A program made the position numbers and the translations under genes. Source: an uncultured Pseudomonadota bacterium (GTDB taxonomy: Bacteria; Pseudomonadota; Alphaproteobacteria; Rs-D84). From it: a DNA stretch of 64,000 bases. The stretch's first letter is position 1; the number at the start of each line of letters is the position of its first letter. The notes beneath the pieces were generated by a model. That model worked only from the letters and a program-made list of their open reading frames with translations, made no database searches and was not told where the DNA came from. The stretch is from NCBI GenBank assembly GCA_949283535.1, contig CASDTC010000007.1, positions 18,746 to 82,745 of the forward strand. Direction: 5' to 3'. Below, piece after piece: positions 30,294-48,318 of this stretch.

Positions 30294-30331
30294 ACACTTG
30301 CCTTTTATTTTCGTTGAATTATTATATACAT

Positions 30332-31015
30332 ATGTCTGAAAAACAAGCAATTTTTACCCTGATGGGCGGTCGTATACGCATGCATCGCGGTCATTACAAT
30401 CCAACATCTGACGCAGTATGGTTGGCATCATATGCCCCACATAATGTTAACACTGTTCTGGATGTCGGCATTGGTACTGGTGGGGTGGGACTGTGCATAT
30501 CCGCAAACAATCCATCTGTTAACTTAACTGGTTTAGATATATCTGATGACATGTTGCGCGAATGCAAACAAAACGCCGATTTAAATAATACAACAATTGA
30601 ATTAATAAATGCAGACATTACATCATGGCGCACATCACGAACATTTGATTTAGTTATTACAAACCCGCCATATTTTCGCGGCACCCCCGCACGCCATAAT
30701 GCGCATCACAATGCCAATATATCCGCATGGACACGCAAATGCATTGCACGCGTACGTCCCCGCGGGTATTTTTGCACTATTGTTTCTGCCGACCGAATAT
30801 CCGATATTATTACCGAAATGCACAATCATTGTGGCGACATTCAAATTATGCCATTATTTGGCGCAAAACACATGGCTGAACGGGTCTTGGTTCGCGGTCG
30901 TGTTGGTGTGCGGGGTGGCGACACTTTGTGGTCGGGTCTGCCAATGAATTACGAACCTGTTTTGCGTGATGGCTTGACTATTGATGATGTATTGGCTAGA
31001 CTAAACTGGATATGA
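30332..31015 (+). CDS. class I SAM-dependent N6-adenine methyltransferase, TrmN6/YfiC-like
   Basis: SAM-binding motif VLDVGIGTGGVGL and catalytic DLVITNPPYF. The start is uncertain (30314 or 30332). Confidence 0.7.
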   Translation: MSEKQAIFTLMGGRIRMHRGHYNPTSDAVWLASYAPHNVNTVLDVGIGTGGVGLCISANNPSVNLTGLDISDDMLRECKQNADLNNTTIELINADITSWRTSRTFDLVITNPPYFRGTPARHNAHHNANISAWTRKCIARVRPRGYFCTIVSADRISDIITEMHNHCGDIQIMPLFGAKHMAERVLVRGRVGVRGGDTLWSGLPMNYEPVLRDGLTIDDVLARLNWI

Positions 31016-32292
31016 TAAATTTTATAACCAGATATTTTACATCCCTGTGGGCATTTATAACATCGCCATTTCGTGCGATGTGGCGCGTTATATGTCGCGT
31101 ATTTCCACCACGGGAATTTACTGTAATGGATACCCCGCGCGGTAATGTTTACACATTTAAGCAAAGCAGTTTTTGGCGATTTACAAAATTCTGTGGCAAA
31201 ATTGGTCTGATTATATGGGCGTCATGGTCAACATATGTATTTGTCTATCACCGCCCATTATTACAAAAGCGCACCCAACAACTGGAAGAAGCAAAATCCA
31301 CCCACGCCCGTCAAATGACAGATTTACAGGTATACTTGGAAAAATATAACGAATTAACACGCAATCTGAATGTTATTGACGATAAAATATTGAATGCCAG
31401 CGACCTGAAAGATTCAGAAAAAGAAGAATTAATGAACAATCGCCTGAAAACATGGGGCGAATTAGATTTTCTGCGTACCCGACTAACTGAAATATTTACA
31501 AACGAAGAATATTCCGCCGAATATACAAAATTATCAGAATTGTCCGCAGAATTTGAATTAACGCGGGCTGAAAATAATGAATTAAAACGCCGTAATGCGG
31601 AAATGGCTGAAAAAATGGAACAGATTGCCACCGCCGATATTCAAATTGTTGACATGGTATCAAAGCTGGCGACGGAAAACATCGACGCATTACGCGATAA
31701 TATTAAAAATATAAATTCAACCATTGCAACATTGGGATTGACGCAAAAGGTACTGATTAATAATGCAAACAAATTCTCAAATCCGATGGTTGGCGCGGCA
31801 TTTAATCCATTGGAATTTGATGACGACATGGATCCAAAATATCAAAAGCTGGCAGACGATTTAGAATTATGGAACGGATTAAAGAAACTGGATACCGTAT
31901 TACCACTGGGGGCACCGGTTGAAAAAATGCGTGTTACATCAAACTTTGGCACACGAAATGATCCATTCACTGGCAAGCCTAAAAAACATCGTGGCATTGA
32001 TTTTGCCGGAAAAATTGGCACAGAATTAATGGCGGTGGCACCGGGGCGCGTTGTATCGGCGGGGGAACGCGTTGGATATGGAACAACAGTTGAAATTGAT
32101 CATGGTTTGGGATTTACAACATTGTATGCCCATTTATCCCAGGCAATGGTTACCCGTGGCGATTGGGTGCGCCCCGGAACCGTTATCGGATTGGCGGGTT
32201 CAACCGGACGTTCAACTGGACCACATTTACACTATGAAATTCGATATAAAGGTGTTCCATTTGACCCATCAAAATTTGTAAAGGAAGAATAA
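31012..32292 (+). CDS. M23-family (LytM) peptidoglycan endopeptidase with N-terminal TM helix and coiled coil
   Basis: HRGIDFAG ... VEIDHGLGFTTLYAHLS ... GSTGRSTGPHLHYEIRYKG (HxxxD and HxH zinc ligands). Confidence 0.88.
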   Translation: MINFITRYFTSLWAFITSPFRAMWRVICRVFPPREFTVMDTPRGNVYTFKQSSFWRFTKFCGKIGLIIWASWSTYVFVYHRPLLQKRTQQLEEAKSTHARQMTDLQVYLEKYNELTRNLNVIDDKILNASDLKDSEKEELMNNRLKTWGELDFLRTRLTEIFTNEEYSAEYTKLSELSAEFELTRAENNELKRRNAEMAEKMEQIATADIQIVDMVSKLATENIDALRDNIKNINSTIATLGLTQKVLINNANKFSNPMVGAAFNPLEFDDDMDPKYQKLADDLELWNGLKKLDTVLPLGAPVEKMRVTSNFGTRNDPFTGKPKKHRGIDFAGKIGTELMAVAPGRVVSAGERVGYGTTVEIDHGLGFTTLYAHLSQAMVTRGDWVRPGTVIGLAGSTGRSTGPHLHYEIRYKGVPFDPSKFVKEE

Positions 32293-46041: not shown

Positions 46042-46770
46042 ATGGCACTACAAGATACATTCTTTAATGGAATTGCTAATATATTGCGTAAATCGCGCCC
46101 TGCATTATGGCGTGAACTGTATCATACAATGCATACAATTGATACAGACAAAAAATTGCCGCTATATTATGCCATATGGCTAAATATGAAACTTGGTTTT
46201 CTGGCCAGTCAGCGCGGACGCAGAACAAAAAACTTGGTCAAAGAAATACGCAGAAATTTATTTTCAGCACTGGTTAATCATTCTGACCAAACCACAATTG
46301 AAAATTATCATATTGCAACACTAGAAGAAAAACAAAAGTTAGCATTTTATATAACATGGCGTCTGCATTCATCTATGACATATAGCCATCCCAACATATA
46401 CGACAATCTGCAAGAAGTGTTTTTTCACGATTCCCAAGAATATGAAAGAACACACAAAGACCCCACCCCACACGGAGAATATAATACAAAAAAAGGCACG
46501 GTCCATTATTATTCAAAAACCTTTGAAATGGATTTAAACGAATTGCTAAATACAATCGTCCATGAATATATTCACGCAATGCAACAAAATTCTGAATCAA
46601 TATTACCCAAAAAAATAATAAATTTTCAAAAAAAACATTCCAAGGCATATTGGAAAACACCGTATATTTTTCGTCCCGATGAAATAGAAGCAGACAGGCT
46701 GGCTGGGTTAGTATTAAAAAACTTTGATAAAAATTTTAAACGATATAAACAAACTAATAATGAATTATAA
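46042..46770 (+). CDS. hypothetical protein with an HExxH zinc-metallopeptidase-like motif
   Basis: 242 aa with TIVHEYIHAMQQ in the C-terminal half. No signal peptide and no family recognised. Confidence 0.5.
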   Translation: MALQDTFFNGIANILRKSRPALWRELYHTMHTIDTDKKLPLYYAIWLNMKLGFLASQRGRRTKNLVKEIRRNLFSALVNHSDQTTIENYHIATLEEKQKLAFYITWRLHSSMTYSHPNIYDNLQEVFFHDSQEYERTHKDPTPHGEYNTKKGTVHYYSKTFEMDLNELLNTIVHEYIHAMQQNSESILPKKIINFQKKHSKAYWKTPYIFRPDEIEADRLAGLVLKNFDKNFKRYKQTNNEL

Positions 46771-46788
46771 CGCAACCAGCATTAAGGA

Positions 46789-47448
46789 TTATCCACGAAA
46801 CCCCATTGCAACAATGAACATTTCAACACTGTCTTTGCGTGATGCCGGCGGTTTTATATGATGTACAGATTCGAATTTTTCTTTGATTTGCTTTAACAAA
46901 TCACCTGTTGTGCCACCTGTAAAAGATTTTGCAACAAATGTTCCACCCTGCTTTAACGCACGACACGCAAAATCAAATGCGTATTCCAATAAAACCATTT
47001 GCCTTAAATGATCTGTTTTTTTATGTCCAACTGTATTTGGCGCCATATCGGATAAAACAACATCAACAGTTCCGCGTTCCCCGGAATCCGTCGGTAAGTT
47101 TAATTTTTTTTCCAACCATTCCAGCGCATCATCTGTTGTAAAATCGCCACGATAAAATTCCACCCCTGGTATCGGCACAATTTCCAATAAATCCATTGCA
47201 AAAACTTTTGATTTTGGAAACGCGCGCATAACATACTGCGACCACGACCCCGGCGCCGCGCCTAAATCAACAACGACCTGACCATTTTTCAGAAATTTAT
47301 ATCGGTCATTCATTTCAATTAATTTATATGCTGCACGCGCACGATATCCATCGCGGTGCGCGCGTGCAACATATGGATCTGCCGCCTGGCGCTGGATCCA
47401 TGCCGCAGAAGATTTTTTTGATGCAATTTTTTTATTTAATATTTTCAT
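46789..47448 (-). CDS. rlmE: 23S rRNA (uridine2552-2'-O)-methyltransferase RlmE/FtsJ
   Basis: WIQRQAADPYVARAHRDGYRARAAYKLIE...VVDLGAAPGSWSQ...VLSDMAPN is the classic FtsJ motif set. Confidence 0.92.
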   Translation of the reverse strand: MKILNKKIASKKSSAAWIQRQAADPYVARAHRDGYRARAAYKLIEMNDRYKFLKNGQVVVDLGAAPGSWSQYVMRAFPKSKVFAMDLLEIVPIPGVEFYRGDFTTDDALEWLEKKLNLPTDSGERGTVDVVLSDMAPNTVGHKKTDHLRQMVLLEYAFDFACRALKQGGTFVAKSFTGGTTGDLLKQIKEKFESVHHIKPPASRKDSVEMFIVAMGFRG

Positions 47449-47746
47449 TTCTGCTGTTTATTGTCGCGCGAATATTATTACGCGTACTTTTATAAAACTT
47501 TATTGCACGATACAGCGCGCGCCGCCGCCCAACTTCGCCTAAATTATCCGTTGTTGGAAATAACAAAGTATAAACACCATGATGCCGATATGTTATTTGA
47601 ACTTCATATCCCAATAACACACGCCCCGCATCTTTATATACTTCATATCGCGGCTGTGGCACTTGAACATCTGTTGGCGTCCAATCAAACCAGTGTCTTA
47701 ACACATGCCAATTAATTAAATTTTTCCACTTCATTTTATTATTCAT
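47432..47746 (-). CDS. hypothetical protein (104 aa)
   Basis: ORF tightly packed between the SRP54-M-like gene (1-nt gap) and rlmE (17-nt overlap). Trp/Tyr-rich; no family recognised. Confidence 0.45.
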   Translation of the reverse strand: MNNKMKWKNLINWHVLRHWFDWTPTDVQVPQPRYEVYKDAGRVLLGYEVQITYRHHGVYTLLFPTTDNLGEVGRRRALYRAIKFYKSTRNNIRATINSRNENIK

Positions 47747-47747
47747 C

Positions 47748-48275
47748 TTATTTATTCACTGGTCCTGGTTGTTGCTTTTGCAATTTTTCCATAACCGCTT
47801 CCATTCCCCCCATACGCTGAACCATTGCCATTTGTTGACGCATTTTTGTATACTGCTTTATAATATGTTCAACATCACGCACAGTGCAACCTGCGGTTTC
47901 CGCGATACGCGCCTTGGCATTTGCAAAGATTTTTTCTGGTTCTGCGCGTTCTGCTGGGGTCATTGCTTCTAATATCTTGATTTGCGCATCAACACTGCCG
48001 TCTTTAATTTTTTCTTTCATTGCGGCAACTGCGCCCGACATTCCCGGCACCATTTTCAACAGCCCACTGAAACTGCTCATCTTTTTAATTTGCTTTAATT
48101 GAGCCAACATATCATTCATATCAAATTGACCCGACATCATGCGCTGGGCAGTTTCTTTCATGCCGCTGGGCATTTTTGCTTCCATTTTCTGTAATTCTTT
48201 TTCATCAATTTGAATATTTTCATTTTTATTTTCTGTATCAGCAGTTGATACTTTCTTTTTCCCGAAACCAAACAT
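47748..48275 (-). CDS. stand-alone SRP54 (Ffh) M-domain-like protein, no NG domain
   Basis: GQFDMNDMLAQLKQIKKMSSFSGLLKMVPGMSG ... ILEAMTPAERAEPEKIFANAKARIAETAGCTVRDVEHIIKQYTKMRQQM aligns by eye with E. coli Ffh GFDLNDFLEQLRQMKNMGGMASLMGKLPGMG ... [48 protein letters not shown]. The ORF starts in the G-M linker. Confidence 0.7.
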   Translation of the reverse strand: MFGFGKKKVSTADTENKNENIQIDEKELQKMEAKMPSGMKETAQRMMSGQFDMNDMLAQLKQIKKMSSFSGLLKMVPGMSGAVAAMKEKIKDGSVDAQIKILEAMTPAERAEPEKIFANAKARIAETAGCTVRDVEHIIKQYTKMRQQMAMVQRMGGMEAVMEKLQKQQPGPVNK

Positions 48276-48318
48276 ATTTTTTCTCCTTCTTGATATTTAT
48301 ATTTACTATATATTTAAT

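Follow-up and report, generated by a model that had tools for sequence, protein, structure and literature searches.

An in-place truncation of ffh leaves a conserved stand-alone M domain in a clade of gut Alphaproteobacteria lacking SRP GTPases and 4.5S RNA

We describe a gene for a stand-alone M domain of Ffh, the signal recognition particle (SRP) protein, in a 64,000-nucleotide (nt) stretch of DNA from an uncultured alphaproteobacterium of the order Rs-D84 (assembly GCA_949283535.1, contig CASDTC010000007.1, positions 18,746 to 82,745 of the forward strand). This whole stretch is referred to as the window, and coordinates count from its first letter. The gene occupies 47748..48275 on the minus strand, stop codon included, and encodes 175 amino acids (aa). 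On the evidence of a full-length M-domain profile match and of locus synteny, it is the positional orthologue of ffh from which the N and G (NG) domains have been removed in place, and we call it the M-only gene. FtsY and 4.5S RNA have been lost in the same clade as the NG domains, while SecY, SecA, YidC and trigger factor stay.

Ffh, its RNA and FtsY are regarded as a near-universal and usually essential system of co-translational targeting, and its complete loss is known from mitochondria and extremely reduced insect symbionts. Here, at least 179 species-level genomes from the guts of humans, livestock, poultry and rodents lack the GTPase pair and hold the signal-binding domain under tighter constraint. 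The clade raises the questions of whether a lone M domain can suffice, how targeting to SecYEG or YidC might proceed without a GTPase, and by which route the mitochondrial proteins mL105 and MAP67 arose.

The gene encodes an Ffh M domain behind the last G-domain motif

An initial annotation, made from the letters of the window, had read the product as a stand-alone Ffh M domain, and profile and structure searches agree with it. PF02978 (SRP_SPB) matches residues 50-149 over its whole length (profile positions 1-91 of 91, E = 2.1e-23) with 83 bits against a cut-off of 27. This places the M-domain core at 47829..48128 on the minus strand, including the finger-loop motif K74..P77 G78. The match to TIGR00959, the equivalog model for ffh, is confined to model positions 313-427 of 428, and with 85.4 bits the protein misses the equivalog cut-off of 473.2. 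The closest solved structures are M domains of E. coli Ffh (5aka_5, E = 2e-15; 1dul_A, E = 7.7e-15). From a 59-row alignment (A2), AlphaFold2 predicts a model made up of helices throughout, with a mean predicted local distance difference test score (pLDDT) of 70.5; values reach 84-96 across residues 91-150 and fall below 50 across residues 1-32. When this model was compared with the PDB by Foldseek, the top matches were all Ffh/SRP54 M domains (5aka_5 at 1.5e-4, 2xxa_A, 4xco_C and others). In public records the relatives of this protein are named 'hypothetical protein'.

The open reading frame (ORF) had been described as beginning in the linker between the G and M domains, which is nearly but not strictly so. 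The start is the last G-domain motif, and the linker follows it. The N-terminal peptide MFGFGKKK (residues 1-8; 48252..48275, minus strand) is invariant in pattern, reading M-F-G-[FL]-G-[KR]-K-[KR] in all 80 species loci compared. Its first six residues align with ILGMGD, the last G-domain motif of Ffh in sister genera, such that the start Met stands at the position of the Ile; G3 and G5 are common to both, and the two groups differ in a fixed manner at positions 1, 2 and 4. Behind the peptide lies a variable acidic linker that is predicted to be disordered (residues 9-33; 48177..48251, minus strand). Among the 80 orthologues it measures 14-32 residues, carries a net charge of -5 to -1 and is 80% polar or small. 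ffh thus survives as its last G-domain motif, followed by the GM linker and by an M domain that is rich in Met.

The N-terminus of E. coli FtsY binds lipid. It reads MAKEKKRGFFSWLGFGQK, followed by a long acidic stretch, and the N-terminal part of the M-only protein is like it in design only. A copy of the FtsY N-terminus was considered as the source of the peptide and rejected: the starts of FtsY in sister genera (MGIFSK, MGLFSR and similar) are only vaguely alike, and it is ILGMGD of Ffh that aligns instead.

An invariant Arg and Gly are gone from the RNA-binding motif

A degenerate RNA-binding motif had also been noted, and the alignment confirms it. In the M-only protein the 4.5S-RNA-binding motif reads NAKARIAETAG (residues 119-129; 47889..47921, minus strand). 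All 18 aligned full-length Ffh sequences fit [SAG]R[KR]xRIAxG[SA]G, whereas M-only proteins follow F[AV]NAKxRIA[EDQ]x[AS][GKD]. Position 120 is Arg in 18/18 Ffh and Ala in 41/41 M-only sequences. Position 127, Gly in 18/18 Ffh, is replaced throughout the M-only rows listed; position 126 is acidic or Gln in M-only proteins, and the final Gly of the motif is Lys in several M-only species. The M-only protein has therefore lost the invariant Arg and Gly of the motif. The E. coli Ffh residues that contact the RNA are presumably those of the literature on 1DUL, and the comparison supports a loss of RNA binding.

Other parts of the domain are shared with canonical Ffh. Residues common to M-only proteins (at least 90%) and to Ffh (at least 80%) include G49, F51, D55, M56, L57, Q59, Q62, K64, K65, G71, K74, P77, G78, Q98, I101, M105, T106, E109, R110 and P113, as well as K121, R123, I124, A125 and others. 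They fall within the stretch to which the M domain of E. coli aligns, including the K..PG before the finger loop, and judging from known structures they would belong to the signal-binding groove.

ffh was truncated in place, once

Gene order identifies the locus. The order uvrA - gene - rlmE was found in 16/16 M-only loci. In sister loci that encode a full-length Ffh (439-489 aa), uvrA and ffh are adjacent in six of seven, the exception (L128) having no uvrA match; ffh and rlmE are likewise adjacent in six of seven (exception L127), and rnhA, tkt and the next ORF then follow. In the window, uvrA lies upstream at 48319..51177 on the minus strand, recognized by its Pfam UvrA domains and by synteny, and rlmE, for the FtsJ methyltransferase, lies downstream at 46789..47448 on the same strand (PF01728, E = 4.8e-58; synteny).

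The uvrA stop codon (48319-48321) and the ATG of the M-only gene (48273-48275) leave a spacer of 43 nt (48276..48318, minus strand), which holds a Shine-Dalgarno sequence, AAGGAG, at 48283-48288, 7 nt before the ATG. A promoter scan found no sigma-70-like minus-strand site upstream of the M-only gene in this spacer, and co-transcription with uvrA is therefore likely.

To place the truncation we used a maximum-likelihood tree of UvrA with 20 rows, 14 from M-only genomes of six genera and 6 from full-Ffh genomes (L128, which has no uvrA, and L024, L027 and L029 were left out). A branch with 100/98 support sets the M-only rows apart on one side, where they are nested among full-Ffh genera, with genus g15 as sister. 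Because the tree unites the M-only rows, the NG deletion is assigned to one ancestral event in Enterousia and five allied genera.

The spacer itself differs within the family. Judged from match coordinates, with L130, L133, L135 and L136 as the loci compared, the distance from uvrA to the gene is about 0.6-1.6 kb in allied M-only genera and in sister genera, as against 43 nt here; Enterousia therefore compacted the interval after the NG deletion.

The partners of SRP are missing from this genome

The source assembly comprises 830,597 bases in 23 contigs and is 93.2% complete. A six-frame search of it returned one SRP_SPB match, namely the M-only gene itself. The SRP-type GTPase domain PF00448 gave no match at E<=0.001 genome-wide, with 13 candidates scored, and was found in 14/14 control genomes. 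PF00448 spans both Ffh and FtsY, so FtsY is absent too. The SRP54 N domain PF02881 gave no match at E<=0.1 across the genome, and the Bacteria_small_SRP RNA model RF00169 gave none in the genome. The earlier conclusion that no NG domain is encoded at the locus, drawn from the closeness of uvrA, thus extends to the genome. With complete Ffh and FtsY sequences from the closest sister genera as tblastn queries, the M part alone was recovered (E about 1e-32 to 1e-34); beyond it, these queries met P-loop-level noise only (E>=0.013). SecY, SecA, YidC and trigger factor are all encoded in this genome.

The sites at which the missing genes would be expected were also located. In sister genera the orthologue of the ORF at 30314..31015 has the 4.5S RNA gene, ffs, immediately on its 3' side. 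In this genome the downstream ORF (31012..32292) overlaps that ORF by 4 nt, so the syntenic site of the lost ffs (31012..31015, plus strand) has no intergenic space. A lineage model of 4.5S RNA (R1, described below), run with filters off, scored at most 8.4 bits here. Pattern scans of the genome for the 4.5S core gave no strict hit and 22 fuzzy hits without any conserved context. The genes on either side of ftsY in the sister genera g11 and g23 sit about 5.8 kb apart on contig C1, which is free of N, with no ftsY between them.

The same state is found throughout a clade of gut bacteria

When 185,579 species genomes were scanned, relatives of the M-only protein turned up in 493 stretches, the best 80 at 78-91% identity. 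Their records are labelled Candidatus Enterousia, uncultured Alphaproteobacteria or 'Rickettsiales', with chicken, human, sheep, goat, yak, cattle, buffalo, roe deer and wild mouse among the gut sources named. Enterousia belongs to the family Rs-D84 of the order Rs-D84 and has genomes of about 0.75-1.0 Mb (PMC12306168). Across the M-only clade the genomes are reduced to about 0.7-1.1 Mb.

We surveyed 200 further genomes of the family together with this one, at a completeness of at least 85%. The M-only set has 179 genomes, comprising 169 of Enterousia, this one, and nine of the allied genera g12 (1), g17 (1), g19 (4), g22 (2) and g24 (1). The sister set has 22 genomes of nine genera (g11, g13-g16, g18, g20, g21, g23). 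A full SRP GTPase match (PF00448) was found in none of the 179 genomes of the six M-only genera and in all 22 sister genomes; an Ffh-type and an FtsY-type match were both present in 21 of these, and G064 had one only. The M domain was detected in 200 of the 201 genomes, that is in 179/179 M-only and 21/22 sister genomes (missed in G064). In the six M-only genera it sits in stop-to-stop frames of about 154-273 aa among the rows listed. In the record of one relative, titled a circular metagenome-assembled genome of 958,618 bases, the best PF00448 score was 13.7 bits and RF00169 had no match.

The PF00448 hits that remain in the six M-only genera score 17-23 bits, cover model positions of about 71-151 and lie in frames of about 450-480 aa; two of these weak hits are nominally above the cut-off of 22.7 bits. 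A hidden SRP GTPase was considered among them and rejected, the frame in genome G003 being a 451-aa tandem GTPase that reads, by eye, as EngA/Der.

For the RNA, a dedicated model was needed because RF00169 alone under-detects 4.5S RNA in the family Rs-D84. Model R1 was built from six 4.5S RNAs of the order with the conserved core intact. It found 4.5S RNA in 20/22 sister genomes and in none of 128 M-only genomes (118 Enterousia, this one and 9 allied). RF00169 itself is weak in the family: it found the RNA in 2/5 sister genomes, at 26-30 bits and under the gathering score. An absence of SRP RNA in the order Rs-D84 that is based on Rfam is unreliable without a lineage model. Examples of 4.5S RNA genes of the family are L154:1501-1593 and L155:1501-1579.

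Trigger factor was kept in 24/24 Enterousia genomes and in this one; in other families it was found in 15/16, the miss being a genome of 84% completeness. Compensation by an Oxa1/YidC2-like insertase was considered and rejected, since the C-terminus of YidC was equally short and had no added basic tail in six M-only and five sister genomes.

In two sister genomes with a full SRP, ffh seems to be interrupted. At G044:C66:1037-2048 a single contig carries the NG part in a frame of 329 aa and the M part in another of 152 aa, and at G075:C8:15460-16428 there is a single in-frame TAG within the ffh match. These are sequencing errors or, possibly, intermediates toward a split or M-only state.

A singleton from a metagenome, P0007, is a 138-aa protein on a 2.6-kb contig that starts MGLFGKKK and continues with a short linker and an M domain. 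Its RNA motif is degenerate: FNAQKERIAADSK. P0007 is 49% identical to the protein of the window, and its best matches in 301 genomes of the order, at 55-56%, are to full Ffh of the same family. No near-identical gene was found among those 301 genomes, and none in metagenome contigs. By its sequence, P0007 may represent a second or deeper M-only lineage with a similar N-terminal peptide.

Strong purifying selection acts on the M-only protein

An intact ORF of 163-181 aa is present in 80/80 species loci. The ratio of nonsynonymous to synonymous substitution rates (dN/dS) of the M-only gene, estimated by the Nei-Gojobori method, had medians of 0.05-0.08 in every dS bin; it was computed for 3160 pairs, of which 1730 had a finite dS > 0.05, and dS was mostly saturated. 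These data indicate strong purifying selection. The six M-only genera are about 80% identical to one another in the M core (residues 45-165). Full Ffh of this family share 63% in that region, and identity between them and the M-only proteins is only 46%. Such values are in line with a burst of change along the clade's stem, after which constraint would have been tighter than on the canonical M domain.

A possible nascent-chain receptor at the ribosome exit

On balance, we think it probable that this in-place remnant of ffh acts as a binder of nascent signal peptides and transmembrane segments at the ribosome exit, free of both RNA and GTP. Where nascent chains leave the ribosomal tunnel, its hydrophobic groove and finger loop would still capture their signal peptides and transmembrane segments, and the capture would need neither RNA nor a GTPase cycle. 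The segments would be shielded until the ribosome meets SecYEG or YidC and would then be handed over passively, the M-only protein being displaced once the ribosome docks at the translocon. It would in this be a bacterial analogue of the mitoribosomal mL105/MAP67, for which a like mode of action is proposed. The invariant aromatic-basic peptide at the N-terminus, carried on an acidic disordered tether, is a candidate for the membrane or translocon contact formerly given by FtsY.

A receptor at the exit site is favoured because the isolated E. coli M domain follows ribosomes and because natural M-only relatives are mitoribosomal. The isolated domain co-migrates with 70S and 50S particles, and it selectively lowers the expression of membrane proteins with or without co-expressed 4.5S RNA (PMC2921155). 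The natural relative mL105 is an M-domain homologue without NG at the tunnel exit of the mitoribosome; its C-terminal helix reaches into the tunnel and contacts the uL23 homologue, and in Polytomella density ascribed to the Oxa1 insertase is associated with it (PMC7326499, PMC9576764).

In a bolder form, which we put forward tentatively and with clearly less confidence, the M-only protein would be a 'mini-SRP', a single 19-kDa protein that replaces the cycle of Ffh, 4.5S RNA and FtsY and whose N-terminal peptide, on an acidic tether of FtsY-like design, anchors the complex to the membrane or translocon and makes the GTPase handshake needless. If true, it would be a natural and independently evolved model of the change from a proto-mitochondrial Ffh to the ribosome-bound mL105/MAP67, since it arose in alphaproteobacteria with reduced genomes.

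Several points weigh against an exit-site receptor. Binding to the ribosome, to signal peptides and to the membrane is in each case ascribed to the M-only protein by homology. The N domain makes the main uL23 contact in canonical SRP, and the M-only protein has no N domain. Trigger factor uses the same ribosomal site and is kept in 24/24 Enterousia genomes and in this one. A way of releasing cargo without a GTPase is not evident, and the YidC of the clade has gained no ribosome-binding tail. The helix-turn-helix region, moreover, is the best-conserved part of the M-only protein and keeps K121 and R123, so that another nucleic-acid or protein partner for it is possible. In a library labelled metatranscriptomic (X3), contigs at least 99% identical to the window fill 26/30 bins of 46700-48400 at a depth of about 1-7, with about 4-6 over the M-only gene; DNA carry-over is possible and strand and level are unreadable, so this is not counted as support for expression. 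A predicted complex of the M-only protein with the membrane core of YidC (A2, A4) scored 0.00 with no controls alongside and weighs neither way.

Alternative explanations

The retained Met-rich groove and finger loop, together with the loss of the N domain and its contact to the ribosome, would also suit a soluble holdase. Such a protein would bind hydrophobic segments post-translationally and independently of the ribosome, so that membrane proteins that are small, tail-anchored or released would stay competent for insertion by YidC or SecYEG. The idea has some precedent in E. coli, where SRP can also serve small membrane proteins post-translationally (PMC7549839). We nevertheless think it unlikely, because on its own the E. 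coli M domain does migrate together with ribosomes (PMC2921155), the only natural M-only relatives known are ribosomal proteins (PMC7326499, PMC9576764), and the conserved C-terminal helix is the counterpart of the tunnel-entering portion of Ffh and mL105. Less likely again, in our estimate, is a translational governor that binds ribosomes making hydrophobic chains and slows or limits synthesis, so that untargeted membrane proteins avoid aggregation in a cell relying on slow, direct docking of ribosomes to the translocon. This proposal draws on the E. coli M domain, whose over-expression lowers membrane-protein expression while mRNA level and protein stability are unchanged (PMC2921155). However, that effect was seen on over-expression only and no arrest element is evident here; a governor is also compatible with the exit-site receptor and hard to separate from it.

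Two readings offered by the initial annotation, a truncated relic and a split ffh, are already contradicted. Genome reduction and the disappearance of the rest of the SRP system would be expected around a decaying, functionless remnant. The ORF is nevertheless intact in all 80 loci, the domain is present in all 178 clade genomes and in this one, dN/dS is low, conservation exceeds that of the M domain of a working Ffh, and the gene has a strong Shine-Dalgarno sequence, so that decay is very improbable. For a split Ffh, with the NG domain elsewhere, or an artefact in which it was lost to a frameshift or an assembly gap, one can cite the draft state of the genome, with its 23 contigs and 93% completeness. 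We give this practically no credence: neither PF00448 nor PF02881 occurs anywhere in the genome, PF00448 is likewise absent from the record titled circular and from 179/179 clade genomes, uvrA stands only 43 nt away, and the neighbourhoods of ftsY and ffs are assembled without those genes. A third suggestion, a paralogous chaperone that has lost RNA binding, survives in part. The loss of RNA binding is supported, but the genome has no resident Ffh of which the gene could be a paralogue; it is the ffh orthologue.

Comparison with known systems

Canonical bacterial Ffh shares with the M-only gene the genomic position, the M-domain fold, the finger loop and the hydrophobic core, and the M cores are about 46% identical. 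It differs in having the N and G domains, the GTPase, 4.5S RNA, FtsY and an intact RNA motif, all of which the M-only system lacks. The isolated M domain of E. coli Ffh, a laboratory construct (Yosef et al. 2010), is the same lone domain and migrates with ribosomes; unlike the M-only protein, it is artificial, was over-expressed beside an intact SRP and keeps the RNA-binding motif. RNA-free organellar SRP54 proteins, namely cpSRP54 of seed plants and mtFfh of Naegleria and others, resemble the M-only protein in the loss of SRP RNA and in mutated RNA motifs. In cpSRP54 and mtFfh, mutation of the RNA-binding motifs goes along with the loss of ffs (PMC8321541), and the M-only clade shows this link as well. 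However, these proteins keep the NG GTPase and an FtsY homologue, and cpSRP54 gained cpSRP43, whereas the M-only clade lost the GTPase pair. PMC5115805 treats the motif that binds cpSRP43 and gives no definition of the RNA-binding motifs.

The nearest parallel is with mL105/MAP67 of Tetrahymena and Polytomella mitoribosomes. MAP67 and mL105 belong to one family, and MAP67 occurs widely across eukaryotes (PMC8321541). Both systems have an Ffh M domain without NG, no SRP RNA and an alphaproteobacterial context. Yet mL105/MAP67 is eukaryotic, nuclear-encoded and a fixed mitoribosomal protein, while the M-only gene is bacterial. Some mL105/MAP67 forms carry SecA-type C-terminal additions, and the MFGFGKKK peptide is not reported in the accessible text of the MAP67 paper (PMC8321541). 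The truncation of the resident ffh maps inside the family Rs-D84, which argues for an origin of the M-only gene independent of MAP67.

By sequence, the M-only protein matches the Tetrahymena mL105 chain 6z1p_AT weakly (E = 3e-4), and this chain stands at rank 20 in the Foldseek comparison. The M region of a sister Ffh (L125) had no match to 6z1p_AT at E<=0.01, yet it matched E. coli Ffh at 3.8e-22 versus 2e-15 for the M-only protein. The likeness to 6z1p_AT could be convergence after the loss of RNA, or chance.

The M-only design is known from mitochondria; in bacteria it appears not to have been known before, and here it seems to be of independent origin. Leaving Microbiology 92:S50 (2023) aside, our literature search found no report of a bacterial M-only Ffh or of SRP loss in Enterousia or Rs-D84, and the accessible text of PMC12306168, on reduced-genome gut bacteria, makes no mention of SRP, ffh or ftsY. 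The completeness of M-only genomes is probably underestimated, because ffh and ftsY serve as universal marker genes.

Neighbouring open reading frames

Between the M-only gene and rlmE lies a 104-aa orphan ORF (47432..47746, minus strand) with no lead from Pfam, NCBIfam or Atlas. It starts directly after the stop codon of the M-only gene and overlaps rlmE by 17 nt. Homologues with 37-42% identity occur in three of nine other Enterousia loci (L023, L024, L029), and none were found in L021, L022, L025, L026, L027 and L028. As it occurs in some Enterousia loci only, this ORF was rejected as a conserved partner of the M-only gene. A 242-aa ORF between rnhA and rlmE (46042..46770, plus strand) belongs to no Pfam or NCBIfam family and had one weak match in the related loci examined, in L134, with 45% identity over 54 aa. 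The interval between rnhA and rlmE varies between genomes.

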